A DNA stretch of 64,000 nucleotides from Patescibacteria group bacterium (GTDB lineage Bacteria > Patescibacteriota > Saccharimonadia > Saccharimonadales > 2-12-FULL-41-12). The stretch is taken from the NCBI GenBank assembly GCA_038064875.1, contig JBBTSC010000001.1, positions 443,004-507,003 on the forward strand. Direction: 5' to 3'. The notes beneath the pieces were generated by a model that worked only from the letters and a program-made list of their open reading frames with translations, searched no databases and was not told where the DNA came from. A program made the position numbers and the translations under genes. Below are positions 4,396 through 35,739 of the stretch, one piece after another; position 1 is the first letter of the stretch; the number at the start of each line of letters is the position of its first letter.

Positions 4396-4793
4396 GGGGC
4401 TGATTTTAGCTCGACATTGGACTTTTACAGATTGGTTCGCATATCGCTTGCTGAGCGTCATACGGCAAAACCCTTAACTGCAAATGCATTTAAGAGCGTA
4501 AAGAATTTTGTTGCTAGTATTTTTACTCCTCAATATTCTTACGCAATAGCCTAAGTTTAATCTTAAGCCACGGACTTGATCGACATCAGATAGATCATCT
4601 TCCGTGTTATATTATCTGATTGCTAGAATCCCGCGCCTCTTTCCGTGGATTCTCTAAGACCATGAAAGATGCGAAAATATCGTTTTGTTTGTTTAACCGA
4701 TGTTTTCTAAGACAACTCAAACAAACTAAATATGTAGAAGACCAGTCAAAGTAAAACCGATGGACGTGGGTGCAATACCCACCAGCTCCACCA
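4396..4793 (+). ncRNA. ssrA: tmRNA (SsrA)
   Basis: 5' GGGGCTGATTTTAGCTCGAC and 3' GGACGTGGGTGCAATACCCACCAGCTCCACCA form the tRNA-Ala-like domain. The internal tag frame ends ...SIFTPQYSYAIA then TAA (4552-4554). Confidence 0.85.
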
Positions 4794-11861: not shown

Positions 11862-13151
11862 TTAAGCTTTATTATCAAGAACTTCGACACCTGGTAATTT
11901 CTTACCTACCATCAAATCCATGCAAGCACCACCTCCGGTCGAAACATGATCAAAAAGATCAGAGATGCCTCTGTTTTCAACGTATCCTGCGGTGTCACCA
12001 CCACCAACGACAACTTTTGGTTTTTTGCCAAATTGCCCAGTCATAGCCTGAACTACCAAATCCGTACCATGTGAAAACGGCCCAATCGGTGAGTGCAGAG
12101 CATTAACTTCAATTACACCCATCGTTCCATTCCAAACAACTGTGCTCGCCATCTGTATAACCCCAGCCATAAATGCTCCAGAAAATGGTCCGATATCATA
12201 AATTGCCTCATTTTCTCTTAGCATATTGGTGATCATAGCCGGCTTCCTCGGATAACTTTCGATGTTGGCAATTGCATGTGCTGACCAATCAACTATCCGC
12301 GTAGTCGTACGACTATCCATCTTGGCTGAGACTACAGCATCCTGCGGTAGGTAGAAAAGGAAGTCCCCAGAATCTACTCGAGCATGAGCTTTGTCCATGA
12401 TCCTTTTAGCCTCACCTATCATATCTGGCTCATAAAGACTCTTACCAACATCATAGCCATTGGCCTTCAAAAAGGTATTTCCCATGGCTCCGCCGATCAA
12501 TACAACATCTGCTATTTCGATAAATTTATCGATCAGCTCAATCTTATCACTTACTTTTGCCCCACCTATCAATGCTACAAGTGGCTTCTGTGGATTTTTC
12601 ATAGCTAGGTTAATCTTTGTGACTTCTTTTTCTAACAAAAATCCCGCAACCCTATGTTTGATAAGTTTTGGTACTGCCTCAGTACTAGCATGTGCACGGT
12701 GGACAACCCCAAAACCGTCTTGAACAAAAACATCTATTCCTTCTGCAAGATTCTTAGCAAATTGGGCATTGTTGTCTGTCTCTCCTGAATAAAACCGGAC
12801 GTTCTCTATCATCAGAGCCTCACCTGGCTTCAGATCTTTCTTAAGTTTCCCTACATCATCCCCGACTGTTGATTCAGTAAATGCAATTTTTTTATCAAGT
12901 AATTTACTGAGTCTGTCTGCAACAGGGCGAAGACTGGAAGCCTTTTCTGGACCCTTTGGACGACCAAGATGCGAGCAAATTACCAATTTGGCTCCATGCT
13001 CCATCAAATACTTTACGGTGGGTAGAGATTGCTTGATCCTCAGATCACTGGTGATATGACCATTTTCGATAGGCACATTGTAGTCAGCCCGAAGCAGAAC
13101 TAATTTATTTTTGACGTCTACATCTTCAATTGTTTTTTTGTTGAAGCTCAT
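11862..13151 (-). CDS. pgk: phosphoglycerate kinase
   Basis: RADYNVP, SHLGRPKG and GGGDTA/STGGGA motifs. Confidence 0.95.
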   Translation of the reverse strand: MSFNKKTIEDVDVKNKLVLLRADYNVPIENGHITSDLRIKQSLPTVKYLMEHGAKLVICSHLGRPKGPEKASSLRPVADRLSKLLDKKIAFTESTVGDDVGKLKKDLKPGEALMIENVRFYSGETDNNAQFAKNLAEGIDVFVQDGFGVVHRAHASTEAVPKLIKHRVAGFLLEKEVTKINLAMKNPQKPLVALIGGAKVSDKIELIDKFIEIADVVLIGGAMGNTFLKANGYDVGKSLYEPDMIGEAKRIMDKAHARVDSGDFLFYLPQDAVVSAKMDSRTTTRIVDWSAHAIANIESYPRKPAMITNMLRENEAIYDIGPFSGAFMAGVIQMASTVVWNGTMGVIEVNALHSPIGPFSHGTDLVVQAMTGQFGKKPKVVVGGGDTAGYVENRGISDLFDHVSTGGGACMDLMVGKKLPGVEVLDNKA

Positions 13152-27012: not shown

Positions 27013-27520
27013 TTTGATCGAAAGATTTGATTGTCTCTTTGAGAACTTCTATCATTTTCTCTGCATGCTCTCGGCTCATGCCTACACGTGATACGGGGGT
27101 TGATTGCCCGTTTATCTGTTGTGAGAATTGGATAACTACTCCACCTTGATTGACTGTGGCCTGCATACTGTCTGTATAAACTACTTTGCTGTCCAAGGGC
27201 ATGAGCATTACCATTTGTTTAGTTAGCGCATCCTCAAGTCCACGACCGAGCGCCTCCTGAGTCTTCGTATCATAATCTTCAATTGTTTTGAGCAGTTCAT
27301 CAGCCTGTTCGTCTGTCAGCAAGAAGTGCTCGATAATCATATCCAAAATGTCTTCACTCGGTAGGGTTTTTCCAGACTCTATAGCGTGTAACAAAGCCTC
27401 ATCGAGTTCTAATGTACCAGACAGTTCACCAATGGACTGATTCCATTGCTCTCGCAGAGATCGTATCTTGGCACCGAGATCTTGAAATGGTTGATTTTGG
27501 TCGTTTTTGTTAGAACCCAT
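26999..27520 (-). CDS. XRE-type HTH protein with a DUF3467-like C-terminal domain
   Basis: N-terminal HTH pattern (LGAKIRSLREQWNQSIGELSG...IESGK). The C-terminal VVYTDSMQATVNQGGVVIQFSQ...MSREHAEKMIEVL resembles DUF3467. Confidence 0.6.
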   Translation of the reverse strand: MGSNKNDQNQPFQDLGAKIRSLREQWNQSIGELSGTLELDEALLHAIESGKTLPSEDILDMIIEHFLLTDEQADELLKTIEDYDTKTQEALGRGLEDALTKQMVMLMPLDSKVVYTDSMQATVNQGGVVIQFSQQINGQSTPVSRVGMSREHAEKMIEVLKETIKSFDQNKKS

Positions 27521-28604
27521 ATCTACATGCTACGCCTATTTAACGTACGATTCAAGCATAACAAGTTATAATAATAATGTGATAGATATCAAAGAAAATA
27601 TTAGCTTAAAAGAACACTCGACAATGCGACTGGGTGGCAATGCTCGCTACTACTGCGTCGTAACCACTATGTTTGAGCTAAAAGAAGCTGTGGAATTCGC
27701 TGATAGCAAGTCAATCGATGCAATCATGATTGGCGGAGGAAGTAATATCATCTGGCAAGACAGTGGATACGACGGACTTGTTATTGTGGGTAATATAAAG
27801 AATTATGAAGTTAATGATTCGCTTGATCAAACATTTGTAACGGTTGGCAGTGGCGAGAATTGGGACGAAGTCGTTGGAAAAACTGTTGAAGCGGGACTAT
27901 CTGGACTAGAATTTATGTCTCTCATACCAGGAACCGCTGGTGGCACACCAGTGCAAAATGTTGGTGCATATGGTGGTGAAGTTGCGCAAACACTTGTTTC
28001 TGTCCAAGCTTATGACCGGAAGGCCAAAAATTTTGTAACTCTTTCTAACGCAGATTGTGAATTTGGTTATCGCACCAGTCGATTTAAAACAAATGACAAG
28101 GGTCGGTTTTTTATCTTTTCACTAACATTCTCCTTGTCTATGAATCCACCGAAAGGTCCTTTTTATGGATCTCTCGAGGGTTATTTGAAACAAACTGGCG
28201 TGACGAGCCCTACATCAGCCGACATAAGAAATGCTGTCGTAGAAATTCGAACCAATAAATTACCAAATCCTGAGCAATACCCTAATTGTGGATCCTTTTT
28301 TGCTAATCCTGTAATCGAGATGAACCAACTAAGACTTATAAAAGAGAGTTATCCGGGCATTAAATACTGGGAAGTTCCAGGCGGAAAGGCAAAGATTTCG
28401 GCTGCTTGGCTGATAGAAGCTATCGGACTAAAGGGATTTGTGGAGCAAAATACAGGAATTCGCGTCTGGGACAAACAGCCACTTGTTCTAATAAATGATC
28501 ATGCTACGAGTACAGCTCAGCTGATTGCATTTCGTGACGCAGTCATTCAAAAAATAAAAGCTAAATTTGAAATCACCCTACACCAAGAACCGGAGATTAT
28601 TTAA
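27507..28604 (+). CDS. murB: UDP-N-acetylenolpyruvoylglucosamine reductase
   Basis: HSTMRLGGNARYY, GGGSNI and the C-terminal MurB pattern. The true start may be GTG 27579, 6 nt after TATAAT 27567-27572. Confidence 0.9.
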   Translation: MLEPISTCYAYLTYDSSITSYNNNVIDIKENISLKEHSTMRLGGNARYYCVVTTMFELKEAVEFADSKSIDAIMIGGGSNIIWQDSGYDGLVIVGNIKNYEVNDSLDQTFVTVGSGENWDEVVGKTVEAGLSGLEFMSLIPGTAGGTPVQNVGAYGGEVAQTLVSVQAYDRKAKNFVTLSNADCEFGYRTSRFKTNDKGRFFIFSLTFSLSMNPPKGPFYGSLEGYLKQTGVTSPTSADIRNAVVEIRTNKLPNPEQYPNCGSFFANPVIEMNQLRLIKESYPGIKYWEVPGGKAKISAAWLIEAIGLKGFVEQNTGIRVWDKQPLVLINDHATSTAQLIAFRDAVIQKIKAKFEITLHQEPEII

Positions 28605-29038
28605 AAATTATATTCGCTGTAGTACTGATCTTTTGCCAGCAAAGGTAATACTGTTGATACGTCGGGTGCAATATTAGTTGGTAAATTATCCATATCAAAC
28701 CATTTAAGTTCATCGCATTTGCTTGGTTCTGCATTATGTAAATCACCAGACCATTCTGTAATCTCAAAGAAAAAATGCACCCGTTCATGATCTTTTTTGT
28801 CCGACATAGCATGTGCTACATGGACAAATTTTAATTGTTCAACTACAACATCAATGCCAATTTCTTCTTTTAATTCACGGATGATTGAACTTTTGGCACT
28901 CTCTTTAGTTTCAACGTGTCCAGCCGGTAGACTATACATTCCATCCATGTACCCAGTGTTTGCACGCTTAATTAATAATACTTGGTTCTTGTTACGCACG
29001 ATGCCATAAACTGCTGGAACTATTTTATGTCTAGCCAT
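28601..29038 (-). CDS. NUDIX hydrolase
   Basis: Nudix box GHVETKESAKSSIIRELKEEIGI. Confidence 0.85.
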   Translation of the reverse strand: MARHKIVPAVYGIVRNKNQVLLIKRANTGYMDGMYSLPAGHVETKESAKSSIIRELKEEIGIDVVVEQLKFVHVAHAMSDKKDHERVHFFFEITEWSGDLHNAEPSKCDELKWFDMDNLPTNIAPDVSTVLPLLAKDQYYSEYNF

Positions 29039-30320
29039 TTTTCTGATCGCTTGGGAGTGGGAATTGATGAGCTAGTTCAGTGACTTCTTTTTTGATCTGC
29101 GCGAGTTTTTTCTCGTCATTTCTATTTACTACTGCTTGTTTCATCCATTCGGCAATCAATATCATGTGCTCTTCCTTGAGCCCACGTGTTGTGATAGCGG
29201 GAGTGCCAAGTCGTAGCCCTGACGGCCTAAATGGCGGATTTGTATCATTAGGAATTGAATTACAGTTAGCATTAAGCTCTACTCTATCGAGAACGTCTTG
29301 AATTTCTCTACCATCAACGTCAAAACTCTTAACCATATCAATCATGATCAGATGATTATCTGTACCATTGGTGATAAGTTTAAAACCTCGACTCATTAGC
29401 TCGTCAGCGAGTTTGCTGGCATTAACAACAATTTGCTTTGCATATGTCTTGAATTCTGGCTGAAGCGCTTCCTGGAAAGCTACCGCCTTGGCAGCAATGG
29501 TGTGCATGTGTGGGCCACCTTGGAATCCTGGAAATACTTCTCGGTCAATTAGAGTTGGTAGATTTTCAATGGTCTTTTCTGGAGCTTTCATTGGATTACT
29601 AACGGTTCCGTTACTCAAAACTAATCCTCCGCGTGGGCCACGGAGCGTCTTGTGAGTTGTGGTAGTAATAATATGAAAACCGAAGTCCAGTGGATTTGGT
29701 AGAATCTTACCGGCAATCAATCCCGCTATGTGCGCCATATCAGCCATCAAAACTGCACCTACTTCATTACCAATATCTGCAATCTTCTTATAGTCAAGAT
29801 TTCGCGGAAAAGCAGAAAATCCAGCAAGCAAAATTTTGGGTTTTTCTTTAAGAGCAACTGCACGCATCTCTTCATAGTCAATCTCACCTGTCTCAATATC
29901 TTTCATACCGTAACGAACAAAATTGTATAGTTTTGCACTTGAGGTTATTGGATGCCCGTGTGTTAAATGCCCGCCGTGGTCAAGCTTCATAGCCATGACC
30001 GTATCGCCAGGCTCAAGCCATGATTGATAAACAGCAATGTTCGCCGGGGCACCAGAGTGAGGTTGGACATTTGCATGATCAGACCCAAAAAGCTGTTTAG
30101 CACGGTCAATTGCAATCTGTTCTAATTTGTCAGTATTTTGCTGGCCACCGTAGTATCTTTTGCCCGGGTATCCCTCTGCGTATTTGTTGGTAAATTCACT
30201 ACCAAGAGCGTCAAGAACTTGACGTGAAACATAGTTTTCGCTGGGTATGAGCTCTAAGCCATCACGTTGCCTCTGAATCTCGGCAATGATTAGCTTGTCT
30301 ATGACCTCATCTCTCTTCAT
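29031..30320 (-). CDS. glyA: serine hydroxymethyltransferase
   Basis: LELIPSENY and TTTTHKTLRGPRGG (PLP lysine). Start trimmed to ATG 30320, 7 nt after a TATAAT. Confidence 0.95.
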   Translation of the reverse strand: MKRDEVIDKLIIAEIQRQRDGLELIPSENYVSRQVLDALGSEFTNKYAEGYPGKRYYGGQQNTDKLEQIAIDRAKQLFGSDHANVQPHSGAPANIAVYQSWLEPGDTVMAMKLDHGGHLTHGHPITSSAKLYNFVRYGMKDIETGEIDYEEMRAVALKEKPKILLAGFSAFPRNLDYKKIADIGNEVGAVLMADMAHIAGLIAGKILPNPLDFGFHIITTTTHKTLRGPRGGLVLSNGTVSNPMKAPEKTIENLPTLIDREVFPGFQGGPHMHTIAAKAVAFQEALQPEFKTYAKQIVVNASKLADELMSRGFKLITNGTDNHLIMIDMVKSFDVDGREIQDVLDRVELNANCNSIPNDTNPPFRPSGLRLGTPAITTRGLKEEHMILIAEWMKQAVVNRNDEKKLAQIKKEVTELAHQFPLPSDQKNG

Positions 30321-30410
30321 TACTTTAATTATAGCGAAAGTTATTGGCTCTACCAAACGTAAGCTGATCAAGTTGAAATAATTCATTTGATGATATAGAA
30401 TGTCTTACAC

Positions 30411-31931
30411 ATGCCAAAAACAAATGCGAAAATTGGTCTTTTAATCCAACACGTGCGACAAGAACGCGGAATGACCCAGGCCAGCCTAGCAAAACATCTA
30501 GGAACAAGTCAGAGTGCGATCAACCGCATAGAAAAAGGTAATCAGAACCTAAGTATTAATATGATCGGCAAGATCAGCGACATCCTCAACAAGCCGATCC
30601 TGCAAGTAGACAGTGGTGCCACAAACCTCCGAATAGAAGGCGGACAAGAGCTATCTGGAAGTGTATCTCTCAAAAAGAGCAAAAATGCAGCTGTTGCACT
30701 TCTGTGCGCGAGCTTGCTCAACCACGGGATAACTCGGTTCAAATCTTTTCCAAAAATAGAAGAGGTCAACAGAATTATTGAAACACTTGAGAGTATCGGC
30801 GTAAAAATCAAATGGGGCAAGAACGGTGACATAGAAATCAGAAGACCGGCAAAACTCAATCTAGAAAAAATAAACTCAAACTCAGCCAAAAAAACAAGAA
30901 GCGTTATTATGTTACTCGGCGCACTGATGCATGAATACAGTGAGTTCAAAATACCATATGCAGGGGGCTGTAAGCTGGGCGAACGTACGGTTACACCACA
31001 TCTTTATGCGCTGGAACAATTCGGTGTATCAATAGATACCAAAAATCATTATTATCATGTTAAATCTACTCCAAAGCACGTTAAGAGAGTAGTATTGTAC
31101 GAAGCTGGAAATACTGTTACCAACAACGTGCTGATGGCTGCGGCTTTCGATACGACTCCTACCATCATTCAGGGCGCAAGTGCTGACTATATGGTGCAAG
31201 ATCTTTGCTCATTTCTGAAAAGATTGGGTGTAAAGATAGACGGAGTTGGATCGCCAGTACTTACGGTCACAGGCATTTCAAAAGCAAAGAAAAATATATC
31301 TTTCAGTGCAACAGAAGACCCGATAGAGGCTATGTTCTTTATTTCTGCAAGTGTGACAACAAATTCTAGTATCACAATCGAGCGAGTACCTTTTCATTGG
31401 ATAGGTCTAGAGCTACTAAAGTTAGAGAAAATGGGCCTTGCCTTTAAAGTTGGTAAGCCCTACCCGTGTGACAACGGAGTTACTGAGCTTGCTGACATAA
31501 AAATCGAAAAGCACGATGGAAATCTCCGCGCACCTATAGAAAAGATCCATCCGAATTTGTGGCCTGGGCTCAACCCGGATAATATTCCATACTTCGTACC
31601 AATTTGTGCAACCGCAAAAGGTAGGACTCTAATCCACGACTGGATGTTTGAAAATCGAGCAATATACTACACCGAACTGACAAAGATTGGGGCACATGTA
31701 GAGCTAGCTGATCCTCATAGATTATATGTAACTGGACCAACAAAGTGGGAAAATAGCGACGTTATTTGCCCCCCTGCTCTACGCCCAGCTAGTCTGCTAC
31801 TGATAGGAATGCTTGCTGCCGATGGAATTAGCACTCTTCGAAATGTTTATACAATAAATAGAGGTTACGAAGATTTGGCTAATAGGCTTAATTCGCTTGG
31901 TGCTAAAATAACCGTAATGAGCGAAATCTAG
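30411..31931 (+). CDS. murA: fusion protein: N-terminal XRE HTH domain plus MurA-type UDP-GlcNAc 1-carboxyvinyltransferase
   Basis: aa 1-65 match the XRE HTH (RQERGMTQASLAKHLGTSQSAINRIEKG). The rest aligns by eye with MurA (SKNAAVALL for K22/N23; YAGGCKLGERTV for the Cys115 loop). Confidence 0.85.
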   Translation: MPKTNAKIGLLIQHVRQERGMTQASLAKHLGTSQSAINRIEKGNQNLSINMIGKISDILNKPILQVDSGATNLRIEGGQELSGSVSLKKSKNAAVALLCASLLNHGITRFKSFPKIEEVNRIIETLESIGVKIKWGKNGDIEIRRPAKLNLEKINSNSAKKTRSVIMLLGALMHEYSEFKIPYAGGCKLGERTVTPHLYALEQFGVSIDTKNHYYHVKSTPKHVKRVVLYEAGNTVTNNVLMAAAFDTTPTIIQGASADYMVQDLCSFLKRLGVKIDGVGSPVLTVTGISKAKKNISFSATEDPIEAMFFISASVTTNSSITIERVPFHWIGLELLKLEKMGLAFKVGKPYPCDNGVTELADIKIEKHDGNLRAPIEKIHPNLWPGLNPDNIPYFVPICATAKGRTLIHDWMFENRAIYYTELTKIGAHVELADPHRLYVTGPTKWENSDVICPPALRPASLLLIGMLAADGISTLRNVYTINRGYEDLANRLNSLGAKITVMSEI

Positions 31932-31982: not shown

Positions 31983-32057
31983 GCGGGTGTCGTATAACGG
32001 CTAATATGCCTGCCTTCCAAGCAGGCGATGAGAGTTCGATTCTCTCCACCCGCACCA
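31983..32057 (+). tRNA. tRNA-Gly (anticodon UCC), CCA encoded
   Basis: Hand-folded: anticodon arm CCTGC-CTTCCAA-GCAGG, T arm GAGAG-TTCGATT-CTCTC. Confidence 0.9.
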
Positions 32058-32066
32058 AATTTAAAT

Positions 32067-32143
32067 GCCCTGGTAGCTCAGCTGGATAGAGCAGGAGACT
32101 TCTAAGCTCAAGGCCGTAGGTTCGAATCCTACCCGGGGCACCA
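32067..32143 (+). tRNA. tRNA-Arg (anticodon UCU), CCA encoded; weak anticodon stem
   Basis: Good acceptor, D and T arms. The anticodon loop CTTCTAA is flanked by only 3 Watson-Crick pairs (G27/A43 and A31/G39 are mismatched). Confidence 0.7.
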
Positions 32144-32194
32144 CATTTTTATAAACACTTTTCCCGATAAGTAATCAAGATTTGATAATTTATC

Positions 32195-32225
32195 GGGGCC
32201 AGGAGTTTACTCTTTGGCTCCACCA
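32195..32225 (+). other. tRNA-Ala-like acceptor minihelix ending in ACCA (relic or small RNA)
   Basis: GGGGCCA pairs with TGGCTCC, including G3:U70, then GGAG-TTTA-CTCT, then ACCA. The same acceptor signature occurs in tRNA-Ala and tmRNA. Confidence 0.35.
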
Positions 32226-32244
32226 CGTTTTTACTCAAAATTGT

Positions 32245-32322
32245 GGCGGGTGTAGCTCAGCTGGTTAGAGCGCCGGGTTGTGGTTCCGGAGGCCGTGGGT
32301 TCAAGACCCATCACTCGCCCCA
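32245..32322 (+). tRNA. tRNA-His (anticodon GUG) with encoded G-1 and CCA
   Basis: G-1 lies opposite C73. Anticodon arm CCGGG-TTGTGGT-TCCGG, T arm GTGGG-TTCAAGA-CCCAT. Confidence 0.9.
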
Positions 32323-32328
32323 AAATTA

Positions 32329-32979
32329 TTACAAATTTGAAATCAGAAAAACTACTGCTATGGGTACGAGCAGGTTATCCAAGCCCTTGATAGTGGTATT
32401 TTCTATAATGCTAAGAGTTATTGGCATTGCTATCAATAGCCAGACATAATCCTCGTACCTTCCAGAAAGCAAGATATAAAAAGTCGTTATCACCAAAGAA
32501 CATAGTAAGAAAGTTACTGAGCCGAGCACTGTCTTGGCTTCGTGTCCTATATGATAAGCAATCTTTTTGCCCCATTTTTTGCCAACAACTGCTGCCAAAC
32601 CATCAGCCAATGCCAAGTGTGCTACGGCAACAAAAAATACCCATGGGTCTTCTGTTATAAACGATGTCATGAGTATCCCTAGTGGGAAAAGCACTGCTCC
32701 GTACGTCTGTCGGCTGACACTATGTATCGACGAAAAAATCTTGAAGTAGTGCGAAGTGAGCGCTACAGTGAACATGAGAGCAGACAAAACTTTTATCTCT
32801 GGAAAATCTATCAAAAAGGGCCAGCTAGCTATCCAAAGACCGCCAACAATATGTATGAACTTCCGAGAGAGTTCGTTTGAAAGTATTTTTTTGTACCATA
32901 GTATTTCGCCTGCAAAAACCACAAAGCCAAGAACGGCTGATACTACAATAATTGAAAAGATATTCAGTTGCTCTATCAT
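32329..32979 (-). CDS. membrane protein of the CTP-dependent polyprenol/diacylglycerol kinase / cytidylyltransferase (CdsA-related) family
   Basis: Multi-TM protein with RKFIH and LADGLAAVVGKKWGK motifs. Confidence 0.6.
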   Translation of the reverse strand: MIEQLNIFSIIVVSAVLGFVVFAGEILWYKKILSNELSRKFIHIVGGLWIASWPFLIDFPEIKVLSALMFTVALTSHYFKIFSSIHSVSRQTYGAVLFPLGILMTSFITEDPWVFFVAVAHLALADGLAAVVGKKWGKKIAYHIGHEAKTVLGSVTFLLCSLVITTFYILLSGRYEDYVWLLIAMPITLSIIENTTIKGLDNLLVPIAVVFLISNL

Positions 32980-35378
32980 TGTTCTTGGCTCTCAAAATCA
33001 GCGACAGTCAAATTTATAACTCCACCTGCACCAATTTCTTGGCTGAGAACCTTTTTAGCAACAATGTTTTCAACATATCTCTGCGCCATGCGCCTCATAG
33101 GCCGGGCGCCAAGCATTGGGTCATACCCCTTATTGATCAACCATTTCTTGCCTGCTTCGTCGACGCTAACCTGAATTTTCTGTGGCTCAAGAGTTTTGTT
33201 GATTGAGCCAATTATAATACTAACTACCTGCACCAAATCATCCGGAGTTAGCGGTTCAAACAACACCACTTCGTCATATCTATTAACAAATTCTGGGGTA
33301 AATATTCTATCGTTGATCAGTTTTTCAACAATCTTATCCTCAGCATCTGGCTGATTAATTTCACCACTGGAGACCATTGATCTAATATCATTTGCCCCAG
33401 CGTTTGACGTGGCAATAATTATTGAATCTTTAAAAGAAACTTGTTTGTTATTTGAATCTTTCATGACTCCTTCGTCGAGCATTTGAAGCAACAGCCCTAG
33501 AACACTTGGATGTGCCTTTTCAATCTCATCTAGTAGCACCACACTAAATGGTTTCTTTCGCATTTGTCCTAGGAAACTAAGCTGATCGCCTTCGTTACCA
33601 GCGCTGACAAGTCTATTGACATCACTTGGTTCAACGAATTGGTTCATGTCTACTCTAACTATTGATGATTCATCCCCAAAATAAACTCTTGCTAAAGCCT
33701 TGGTAAGCTCTGTCTTACCAACACCAGTTGGGCCAATGAACAAGAATGTACCTACTGGTCGATCAGCAGACCCAACGCCACTCCTAGAACGACGTAGTGC
33801 ATCTGACACCGCTCTAATTGCCCGCTTTTGGCTAATAACATGCTGGCTGAGATTTTTCTCTAAATCGAGCAAGTTGGTTGCCTCTCCTGCCTGCGCAGTT
33901 TGCAGTTTTACACCTTTAGAACGCTCAAGGCTTAGCTTTATAACTGCATCTGTCACGTAACCATTTTCCGTATAGGCCGGGGCTTCTTCTAAAACTTTGA
34001 GGGCAGCACCTGGCATGGCCAGACTATCTTCATATCTTTTACCAAGCTTGTACGCCTCACGAAGAGCTTGATAAGTAAAAGTGCATTTATGTTTGAACTC
34101 AACCAAAAGTATTTGATTCTGCAAAATTCTGATAGAGTCTGATTCGTTTGCTTCAGGTAAATTAACAGACTGTATCTTGGATGTTAGTGAGCTTCCTCTC
34201 GCCTGCAAACTTTGCCACTGCTTTGGCGTTATCGCAAAAATCATTCTGACAGCGCCTGATTCAAGCGCCTGCGAGAGCACGTTAGACAGATCAACTGCTC
34301 CAACACCCTCACTGAAAAACACTTCTGCATTATCAAAAAACAAGATAATATTCTTGGCTTTATGTGCTTCGTTGATCATATGAATAACAAGCTGTTCGAG
34401 TTGACCGGGTCTGGTAGCCCTAGAAATCATAGCGCTGGCATCCAACATGACTACTTGCTTGTACCTGAGATTTTTTGGAGAAGAAGCGCTCAGGATTTGC
34501 TCGGCAAAAGCATATGCGGTAGTTGTTTTGCCAGATCCGTTTTCACCAACAATAGCTATAGATTTGTTTGTGTTGCTCATTGACTGAATCATGCCACCAA
34601 CCACCTGCTGATGAAGCGACGTGTCTTGGAAAAATCCATAGAGTTCAATTTCTCGCGAGATACTATAGCCAAAACTTTGAAGCACCGGCGTATAACCATA
34701 CGTCCAGTCACGAGCCAATCCTCCAAAATTCTTTTTTTCTCTTGCTTGTTTATGCTGATAACTTAGGCTACTCATCCAAAGCACTCCATTCTCAATATCG
34801 GCTCGTGACAACTTGAGTTTGTTCAGAAGACCCTCTGCGTCAGGCAAAGAAAGTATAAGGCCAGCCATGACAAGTTCCTGGGAATAGTAGCTCATGGATA
34901 GCTTGCTCCTGAGCGCCTCTGTATTGCGCCAAACCACGGCCTCACTGGAAGGATCTTTAGAGAGCATATTTTCAAAAATCTCTGTCGGTAACACAAATCT
35001 ATTTTGGAAAAAGTACCGAGCAGACAGTCTCTCTATCGCTTTCCAAATTAAATATGCAGACTGTGAGCCATTTTTCATATTTGCCAAAATCTGTTGATCA
35101 AGTACATCGTCTACTTTACCTGTCTTGTTGCCAATATTTTTATTTAACTGTGACAACTCACCTGCAGTCCAAAACCTAATTGACAAAGTTAACAGTCCTA
35201 CGCTCAAGAATAAGCCTGAAAGTTTCGGCATCGCATAGAGCAACATAAGTCCAAATAACAAGAAAGCCACTGCTGACAAATTCAAAATCTGGCGGAGGAA
35301 TTTATTATCAAGCGCTTTAAATATACGTGCTTTGACAGCTCTATCAGAATCTAGATTTAAATAATTACCCTGCACCAT
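32976..35378 (-). CDS. membrane-anchored double-AAA+ Clp/Hsp100-like ATPase
   Basis: Two N-terminal TM helices and Clp_N-like repeats. D1 has GENGSGKT and ILFFDNAE; D2 has GPTGVGKTE, LLDEIEKAH and GARPMRR. Start taken at ATG 35378. Confidence 0.85.
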   Translation of the reverse strand: MVQGNYLNLDSDRAVKARIFKALDNKFLRQILNLSAVAFLLFGLMLLYAMPKLSGLFLSVGLLTLSIRFWTAGELSQLNKNIGNKTGKVDDVLDQQILANMKNGSQSAYLIWKAIERLSARYFFQNRFVLPTEIFENMLSKDPSSEAVVWRNTEALRSKLSMSYYSQELVMAGLILSLPDAEGLLNKLKLSRADIENGVLWMSSLSYQHKQAREKKNFGGLARDWTYGYTPVLQSFGYSISREIELYGFFQDTSLHQQVVGGMIQSMSNTNKSIAIVGENGSGKTTTAYAFAEQILSASSPKNLRYKQVVMLDASAMISRATRPGQLEQLVIHMINEAHKAKNIILFFDNAEVFFSEGVGAVDLSNVLSQALESGAVRMIFAITPKQWQSLQARGSSLTSKIQSVNLPEANESDSIRILQNQILLVEFKHKCTFTYQALREAYKLGKRYEDSLAMPGAALKVLEEAPAYTENGYVTDAVIKLSLERSKGVKLQTAQAGEATNLLDLEKNLSQHVISQKRAIRAVSDALRRSRSGVGSADRPVGTFLFIGPTGVGKTELTKALARVYFGDESSIVRVDMNQFVEPSDVNRLVSAGNEGDQLSFLGQMRKKPFSVVLLDEIEKAHPSVLGLLLQMLDEGVMKDSNNKQVSFKDSIIIATSNAGANDIRSMVSSGEINQPDAEDKIVEKLINDRIFTPEFVNRYDEVVLFEPLTPDDLVQVVSIIIGSINKTLEPQKIQVSVDEAGKKWLINKGYDPMLGARPMRRMAQRYVENIVAKKVLSQEIGAGGVINLTVADFESQEQ

Positions 35379-35739
35379 CACCTCCAACGACCAACATTAA
35401 TATAGGCAGAATGATGATGGCGAGCGGGATAAAAGCCCAAGAGGCTAAAACAACAAAAAAACAAACGCTCAATAACGATATTATGATTCCTGCACCTATA
35501 AGTACAAATATCCTTATGATAAAACCAATTACCCTTGAAACAGTATTGTCCACTAACGCCTGGAAGAAATTACGAAGCGTAGCCTCTGTGTAGAGCTGTT
35601 TCCAGGGAGAGAACAGTGTTTTGAGCAATATAACAACTGAAAAACTCCTCAACAATGAAGATAATTTCTTGCTGTATTCGGATAAAATCCAAGCCCATCC
35701 AGCACCATACCACCACTTTAAATATAAGATAATTGCCAT
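35365..35739 (-). CDS. small polytopic membrane protein, overlaps the Clp-like gene start
   Basis: Track ORF, 124 aa, hydrophobic, with a 14-nt overlap with the downstream gene. Confidence 0.5.
   Translation of the reverse strand: MAIILYLKWWYGAGWAWILSEYSKKLSSLLRSFSVVILLKTLFSPWKQLYTEATLRNFFQALVDNTVSRVIGFIIRIFVLIGAGIIISLLSVCFFVVLASWAFIPLAIIILPILMLVVGGDGAG

Follow-up and report, generated by a model that had tools for sequence, protein, structure and literature searches.

In a 64,000-nucleotide (nt) stretch of the genome of a Patescibacteria group bacterium (Saccharimonadales; contig JBBTSC010000001.1, positions 443,004 to 507,003), to which we refer in full as the window, a single gene encodes MurA in fusion with an N-terminal helix-turn-helix (HTH) domain of the XRE/Cro-C1 type. 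Comparison with relatives across the candidate phyla radiation (CPR, or Patescibacteria) suggests, with a probability that we put at about 0.65, that the product is a bifunctional enzyme and autorepressor, a "trigger enzyme" in which MurA represses its own gene. Autoregulation had been offered as one explanation of the fusion in a previous reading of this DNA from its letters alone (the sequence-only reading), and it finds support at the level of the family in a palindrome specific to the promoters of these genes, in a near-invariant recognition helix and in the purifying selection that acts on the HTH domain.

The open reading frame (ORF) of 506 amino acids (aa) and its N-terminus are exactly as quoted in the sequence-only reading, and both of the domains proposed there are found in it by Pfam: HTH_3 (PF01381) at residues 14-63 (E 5.4e-13, 49.2 bits against a cut-off of 23) and EPSP_synthase (PF00275) at residues 76-492 (E 5.3e-39). 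The latter match covers profile positions 2-416 of 417, in agreement with the claim that the enolpyruvyl transferase is complete. Among the NCBIfam models, the protein reaches 307.9 bits with the MurA subfamily NF006873, above its cut-off of 297, and 294.3 bits with the MurA equivalog TIGR01072, under its cut-off of 392.7, on account of which we regard it as a divergent MurA; the aroA model scores far lower (64.6). The enzyme is about 27% identical to canonical MurA of the E. coli type, and all strong matches of the enzyme part in a sequence search of the PDB are MurA (best 5UJS, E 4e-53), the N-terminus matching HipB-type HTH proteins.

The active site was read from a MAFFT alignment of 189 sequences made with fast settings, with the E. 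coli MurA sequence, verified to be identical to 1UAE chain A, as the reference; the columns near E. coli positions 160-164 and 369 are unreliable and were left unused. In this alignment, residues K91, N92, R163, C187, R192, D390, R416, R458 and R484 of the window protein correspond to E. coli K22, N23, R91, C115, R120, D305, R331, R371 and R397, which bears out the two motifs picked out by eye in the sequence-only reading, SKNAA as the equivalent of K22/N23 and GGCKLGERT as that of C115/R120. Active-site loss in the window protein was considered and rejected, all core catalytic residues being conserved. The same signature, KNRCRDRRR, is intact in 85 of 85 close relatives and kept in 115 of 126 distant fused proteins. 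The C-terminal ~430 residues thus have the sequence of a catalytically competent Cys-type MurA and are probably the cell's working MurA.

The fusion recurs wherever close relatives were sampled. The best 120 matches in a collection of 5.8 billion proteins, at 100-70% identity, are all 504-522 aa long and carry both Pfam domains; they come from NCBI, JGI, ENA and Logan assemblies, some on contigs of 0.8-1.2 Mb. Scanning a single genome for each species gave 140 relatives, from which 80 loci were retained, all from metagenome-assembled genomes of Candidatus Saccharibacteria/Saccharimonadales; the full-length fusion is present in each of them, and an unfused, split version was seen in none of these 80 genomes. 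A search seeded with a distant member added 118 further fused proteins, whose source names include Ca. Colwellbacteria, Taylorbacteria, Liptonbacteria and Parcubacteria, and when 50%-identity representatives were searched exhaustively with HMMER, fused, full-length members appeared down to ~34% identity. The survey of CPR genomes called for in the sequence-only reading therefore finds the fusion in Saccharibacteria and in Parcubacteria-type lineages, and on these sequences the fused architecture is shared by two or more major CPR branches. Among the homologues, the motif at the junction, NLRIEGG, is conserved, and the fusions are everywhere annotated simply as MurA. A frameshift or assembly artefact joining an XRE gene to murA, which that reading had kept in view, is practically excluded because hundreds of assemblies, made independently and drawn from four sources of data, show the same architecture and length (504-508 aa); no evidence in its support was found. 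The closest apparently unfused MurA representatives (P0122, P0124, P0126, P0127, P0133 and P0136) are 440-462 aa long and 38-55% identical, with intact catalytic residues. These unfused proteins belong to the MurA clade of the fused ones, both lacking, for example, an equivalent of D369, a position whose alignment column is among the unreliable ones.

Within the fused proteins, the HTH domain is better conserved than the enzyme body. The mean frequency of the most common residue among 86 orthologues is 0.85 in the HTH domain (aa 8-62), 0.80 in the enzyme body and 0.56 in the linker (aa 63-72), and the recognition helix, TSQSA[VI][NA]R[IM]E.G.QN, is near-invariant from 100% to ~34% overall identity, including in paralogues that have lost catalysis. 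In the subclade of the window, synonymous sites are saturated (proportion of synonymous differences, pS, 0.7-0.9), the corresponding nonsynonymous proportion (pN) is 0.02-0.12 in the HTH domain and equally in the enzyme, and the ratio of nonsynonymous to synonymous rates (dN/dS) between the window and its relative L081 is ~0.04. These values indicate that HTH domain and enzyme body are both under strong purifying selection in the subclade. An AlphaFold2 model built on an 83-sequence alignment (predicted local distance difference test, pLDDT, 90.1; predicted template modelling score, pTM, 0.83) shows a four-helix HTH domain and a disordered tether, followed by the MurA body. The structure prediction proposed for the linker in the sequence-only reading thus returns a segment with pLDDT below 50 at aa 65-69, and the model fits an independent DNA-binding head on a disordered tether of about 10 residues.

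The presumed target of this head is a 16-bp palindrome, ATAYCA-N4-TGRTAT (consensus ATAYCAyatrTGRTAT), which in the family sits in the murA promoter, flanked by its -35 and -10 boxes, as for example in the forms ATATCATATATGATAT, ATACCTTATAAGGTAT and ATATCACATGTGATAT. When the intergenic regions are aligned on the -10 box, the layout reads TTGnnn, about 7 nt, ATAYC, 6 nt, GR immediately followed by TATAAT, 7-12 nt and ATG; the right half-site overlaps the extended -10 element TGnTAT, and the two half-sites are 10 bp, or one helical turn, apart. A search with the pattern ATA[CT]C.{6}G[AG]TAT over 553,765 bp of loci gave 56 matches, as opposed to 2.9 in shuffled sequence, and 48 of them fall 5-25 nt upstream of the murA ATG, with 3 at ~120 nt and 5 elsewhere. 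The left half is perfect at 48 of 79 murA promoters and carries one mismatch at a further 14, compared with 0.3% perfect and 3.4% with one mismatch at 2,919 other GRTAT sites and no perfect case at 328 GRTATWWT sites. Since it is near-absent from these other sites, the left half-site is not a generic promoter feature. In three Saccharibacteria genomes (L012, L024 and L080) the canonical palindrome stands 116-124 nt upstream of the murA ATG rather than 10-15 nt, which implies a long 5' untranslated region or an insertion between promoter and gene.

The palindrome persists at ~40% protein identity and next to different neighbours, be they glyA, mreB or mur operons. It is found 0-12 nt before the start codon in Colwellbacteria (L089, ATATCAGATATGATAT) and Liptonbacteria (L090, ATATCATATATGATAT), in a fused member with divergent glyA (L088, ACATCACTTTTGATAT) and in two pseudo-enzyme paralogues (L086, ATATCATATATGATAT; L087, TAATATATCATACATGATATATTA), and when metagenomes were searched with the bare 16-mer, at least 6 more HTH-MurA genes of 45-49% identity came up in which the palindrome closely precedes the gene. 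That neither the recognition helix nor this gene-specific palindrome varies over so wide a range of sequences would mark the two as a conserved pair of transcription factor and operator. Further copies of the operator within 3 kb on either side of the gene number 5 in 80 genomes, with ~3 expected, and thus give no evidence of a nearby regulon. Unrelated metagenome contigs (L154, L106, L192, L193 and L169) carry the exact 16-mer ATATCATATATGATAT in clusters of 3-7 copies, a sign that other regulators, or other repeat elements, make use of this palindrome as well.

Small side branches of the family have lost R91, C115, R120, R371 and R397, or almost the whole catalytic set (E. coli numbering; P0131, P0271-P0274, P0125, P0137, P0141, P0143, P0152 and P0159), and all of these catalytically dead fused paralogues retain the HTH domain. 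In L086 (95-6201) and L087 (3174-13106), the dead fused gene is divergent from a mur operon, with the operator kept. This operon encodes MurD-like and other Mur ligases and a separate, unfused MurA of 437-438 aa, with MurB in addition in L087, and a further Mur ligase follows the dead fused gene. The unfused MurA of these loci is 27-29% identical to the window enzyme and the dead fused domain 39%; being the closer of the two, the dead copy descends from the fused lineage and was kept after its catalysis became dispensable. We consider such paralogues the strongest comparative argument for a function of the lineage that is independent of catalysis and linked to mur genes, regulation being the obvious candidate, and they suggest that the MurA fold is able to serve as an effector or sensor domain.

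In the window itself, the palindrome search that the sequence-only reading had proposed for the 90-bp region between glyA and murA (30321-30410) succeeds in part: the palindrome is there as a family feature, and the window has only the degenerate remnant ATTCATTTGATGATAT, with its right half intact and two mismatches in the five positions of its left half. This degeneracy is common to the closest relatives of the window (L081, L001, L082-L084 and L085, 75-91% identity), among which the promoter block, spacer included, stands out as the one stretch of the intergenic region that is well conserved, although neutral (synonymous) sites are saturated there. In this subclade the left half-site has decayed, and repression has probably become weaker or remodelled. 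Where the window is concerned, rather than the family, autoregulation in this lineage is the main uncertainty; its enzyme and HTH domain are, to judge by conservation, functional despite the degenerate operator. The best match to the operator position weight matrix (PWM) in the window, AGATCACTGGTGATAT at 13042-13057 (12.6 bits, one mismatch), was set aside as probably due to chance, as it lies within the 5' part of an ORF at 11862..13151 on the minus strand.

The -10 box of murA ends 9 nt before the ATG, and neither murA nor glyA has a visible Shine-Dalgarno sequence. With -10 boxes ending just before start codons, and with no such sequence in view, both mRNAs are probably leaderless or nearly so. 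This pattern, with a -10 box that ends 7-12 nt before the start, is seen in nearly all of 75 Saccharibacteria intergenic regions, as well as in Parcubacteria-type loci.

We propose that the N-terminal XRE HTH domain would bind the palindrome, most likely as a dimer, as the comparative evidence suggests; the 10-bp spacing of the half-sites would suit a dimer bound to a single face of the DNA, in the manner of 434 Cro and repressor. At about -25 to -10, between the two promoter boxes, bound protein would exclude RNA polymerase, resulting in negative autoregulation of murA and an enzyme level that is held constant. More speculatively, binding by the HTH domain might be modulated by the open or closed state of MurA as set by UDP-N-acetylglucosamine (UDP-GlcNAc), phosphoenolpyruvate (PEP) or UDP-N-acetylmuramic acid (UDP-MurNAc). 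The last of these feedback-inhibits MurA. Control of murA may be substrate-responsive, as the sequence-only reading had also supposed. The autoregulatory circuit appears to be ancient in the CPR. A wider version, which we hold to be rather doubtful, would make HTH-MurA an ancestral, CPR-wide sensor and regulator whose body reads the precursor pool (UDP-GlcNAc, UDP-MurNAc and PEP) through its open/closed transition and signals to the HTH domain, so that pathway flux would directly set transcription of murA, or of whole mur operons where the enzyme is dead, and a single polypeptide would act as master regulator of the cell wall in bacteria with very few transcription factors.

Several observations weigh against self-repression by MurA. 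Every regulatory claim made here is drawn from comparison between sequences, and the protein that binds the palindrome could be another regulator. The MurA of E. coli is usually described as a monomer, and so offers no ready source of dimerisation. The site at the window promoter reaches 3.3 bits by PWM, as opposed to 14-23 for true sites, and ranks 43rd in the window; two or fewer mismatches in the left half are not significant on their own (null probability ~0.17), and no part of the 64 kb holds a canonical operator by the PWM or by an exact-site scan. The right half-site is inseparable from the extended -10 element. Co-variation between the half-sites (ATACC..GGTAT as opposed to ATATC..GATAT, position 4 against position 13), suggested by eye, is not significant (Fisher p = 0.40, 52 distinct sites). 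Finally, only 6-10 of 120 metagenome contigs with the 16-mer are linked to HTH-MurA and ~90% of its occurrences lie in unrelated AT-rich contexts; with most contigs lacking such a link, the palindrome alone is not diagnostic.

A rival explanation is an active MurA whose HTH domain binds DNA without regulating its own gene, as a nucleoid tether or in the control of other genes, with the palindrome being the site of another regulator or part of an unusual promoter. The non-canonical site in the window, the extended -10 element within the right half and the many unrelated contexts of the 16-mer all speak for it. Yet the left half-site is missing from other promoters and other GRTATWWT sites, the palindrome follows the gene through lineages at ~40% identity with different neighbours, tracking the invariant recognition helix, and the 3 kb on either side of the gene in 80 genomes hold no excess of sites over chance, for which reasons we consider this explanation unlikely. 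Less probable still is that the window fusion is mainly a regulator with the MurA fold as its sensor and that catalysis falls to another murA, unfused and located elsewhere in the genome. Such a division of labour is what L086 and L087 display, with their dead fused paralogue and separate MurA of 437 aa; the window protein, however, has its core catalytic residues intact and shares them with all 85 close relatives, its enzyme body is under purifying selection as strong as that on the HTH domain, and a scan covering the 64-kb window finds no second murA, with murB two genes away. Saccharibacteria genomes are under ~1 Mb in size, and a second murA is not expected in genomes so reduced. There is, lastly, very little to be said for an HTH domain that does not bind DNA and acts instead in protein-protein interaction or stability, for instance by marking MurA for degradation or by offering an adaptor site to a ClpC-like ATPase. 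The gene of such an ATPase does lie two genes downstream of murA, with counterparts close to the fusion in L082 and L087, a proximity that may or may not be meaningful, and in Firmicutes it is ClpCP proteolysis that controls MurA levels. Yet the most conserved part of the HTH domain is the canonical recognition helix and not a surface patch, and the promoter conserves a palindromic DNA element to match it. We thus retain the autorepressing enzyme as the preferred explanation.

Table 1. Features of the HTH-MurA locus, in positions of the 64,000-nt window.
Feature	Position	Strand	Basis or remark
HTH-MurA fusion coding sequence, 506 aa and stop codon	30411..31931	+	single uninterrupted ORF, ATG start; architecture kept in >230 homologous clusters
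XRE/Cro-C1-type HTH, aa 1-63, predicted helices 2-18, 23-30, 34-41, 49-59	30411..30599	+	Pfam HTH_3, AlphaFold2 model
Recognition-helix region TSQSAINRIEKG, aa 32-43	30504..30539	+	near-invariant across homologues
Flexible tether between HTH and enzyme, aa 60-72	30588..30626	+	AlphaFold2 pLDDT; least conserved segment
MurA (UDP-GlcNAc 1-carboxyvinyltransferase, EC 2.5.1.7) body, aa 73-503, Cys-type active site	30627..31919	+	Pfam, NCBIfam, PDB matches, alignment
TGT codon, catalytic Cys187 (E. coli Cys115, fosfomycin target residue)	30969..30971	+	alignment to E. coli MurA
murA promoter, TTGAAA (30373-30378), 17-nt spacer, TAGAAT (30396-30401)	30373..30401	+	promoter scan, 10/12 consensus positions
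Degenerate operator remnant ATTCATTTGATGATAT	30381..30396	.	same position as canonical palindrome in 62/79 other loci
glyA (serine hydroxymethyltransferase), divergent	29031..30320	-	ORF; start most likely 30320
glyA promoter, TTGGTA-17-TATAAT	30356..30328	-	promoter scan; ends 7 nt before glyA ATG
murB, next pathway enzyme, two genes away	27507..28604	+	ORF; Pfam FAD_binding_4 and MurB_C in syntenic L082, L083, L088

The divergent arrangement of murA and glyA noted in the sequence-only reading holds in 80 of 80 Saccharibacteria loci, and the order murB, NUDIX hydrolase, glyA and, divergently, HTH-murA (27507-31931 in the window) is conserved in L081-L083 and L088. The fused gene of Colwell-, Lipton- and Taylorbacteria adjoins mreB, and not glyA, in a divergent or directly downstream arrangement (L089 5675-6682, L090 2855-3862 and P0335), so that in those lineages the operator could also affect a cell-shape gene. 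Directly downstream of murA in the window lies a cluster of genes for tRNA-Gly(TCC), tRNA-Arg(TCT) and tRNA-His(GTG) (31983-32322, plus strand), followed by an ORF of 216 aa (32329-32979, minus strand) that is hydrophobic by eye, has no Pfam hit on record and is kept directly 3' of the tRNA cluster in L081 (91% identity), and by the ClpC/ClpB-like AAA+ ATPase discussed above (803 aa, 32976-35387, minus strand). Further away, the window carries a transfer-messenger RNA gene (4396-4793, plus strand; Rfam RF00023, 87.5 bits).

The first committed step of peptidoglycan synthesis is the work of MurA, which fosfomycin targets, and how cells set the level of this enzyme is an active question. CPR bacteria have tiny genomes with few regulators, and to our knowledge almost nothing is known about their gene regulation. 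Full-text literature searches returned no description of an HTH-MurA fusion, and as far as these searches go an enzyme-repressor fusion is new for MurA, for peptidoglycan synthesis and for the CPR. If our proposal is true, a deeply conserved pair of transcription factor and operator is built into MurA, providing a new solution for the control of cell-wall precursor supply and a rare testable cis/trans module for an uncultivated radiation. The family would then also offer a natural gradation between working enzyme-repressors and regulators that are pseudo-enzymes, showing how metabolic enzymes turn into sensor domains, and thousands of database entries labelled "MurA" would conceal a DNA-binding function. 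The 16-bp operator could, in that case, be used as a genetic tool, for example as a regulated promoter, in the few tractable Saccharibacteria, a phylum for which natural transformation and Tn-seq have been reported (PMC12173739).

With canonical MurA (E. coli and E. cloacae; 1UAE and 1NAW), the fused protein shares the two-lobed enolpyruvyl-transferase fold, the catalytic residues and the cysteine targeted by fosfomycin. The canonical enzyme has ~419 aa and no DNA-binding domain, and the fusion is indeed, as the sequence-only reading had remarked, foreign to the textbook architecture; the D369 equivalent, in an alignment column that is unreliable, is conserved neither here nor in the closest unfused relatives. 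At the level of control, the nearest parallel is found in Firmicutes, where MurA (MurAA) is a substrate of ClpCP and its levels are set by regulated proteolysis. The control point, the level of the first committed peptidoglycan enzyme, is the same there, but the mechanism (ClpCP, ReoM/ReoY/PrkA) is post-translational, unlike the transcriptional self-repression proposed here, and no homology is implied.

A combination of domains similar to ours is seen in NF006015/PRK08154, the "anaerobic benzoate catabolism transcriptional regulator", in which an XRE HTH domain precedes a shikimate-kinase-like domain and thus, as here, the fold of a metabolic enzyme. The window HTH domain matches this NCBIfam model weakly (E 1.9e-7), the enzyme domain is a different one, and the protein is annotated as a regulator and not as a working enzyme. 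Enzymes fused to a DNA-binding domain are otherwise represented by PutA (proline dehydrogenase/pyrroline-5-carboxylate dehydrogenase with an N-terminal ribbon-helix-helix) and NadR (HTH with nicotinamide mononucleotide adenylyltransferase), both of which regulate themselves or their own pathway by substrate status. Their DNA-binding folds and enzymes differ from those of HTH-MurA, and neither acts in cell-wall synthesis. The textbook trigger enzyme is BirA, the biotin protein ligase and bio repressor of E. coli, which binds a palindromic operator overlapping divergent promoters and represses its own pathway. Like HTH-MurA, it unites an N-terminal HTH domain and an active enzyme in one polypeptide, the activity being read from sequence in our case. 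In contrast to the XRE/Cro-C1 type found here, the HTH domain of BirA is winged, and its enzyme fold and pathway are others; it dimerises on the intermediate bio-5'-AMP, whereas no co-repressor is known for HTH-MurA, and it regulates the bio operon, beyond its own gene.

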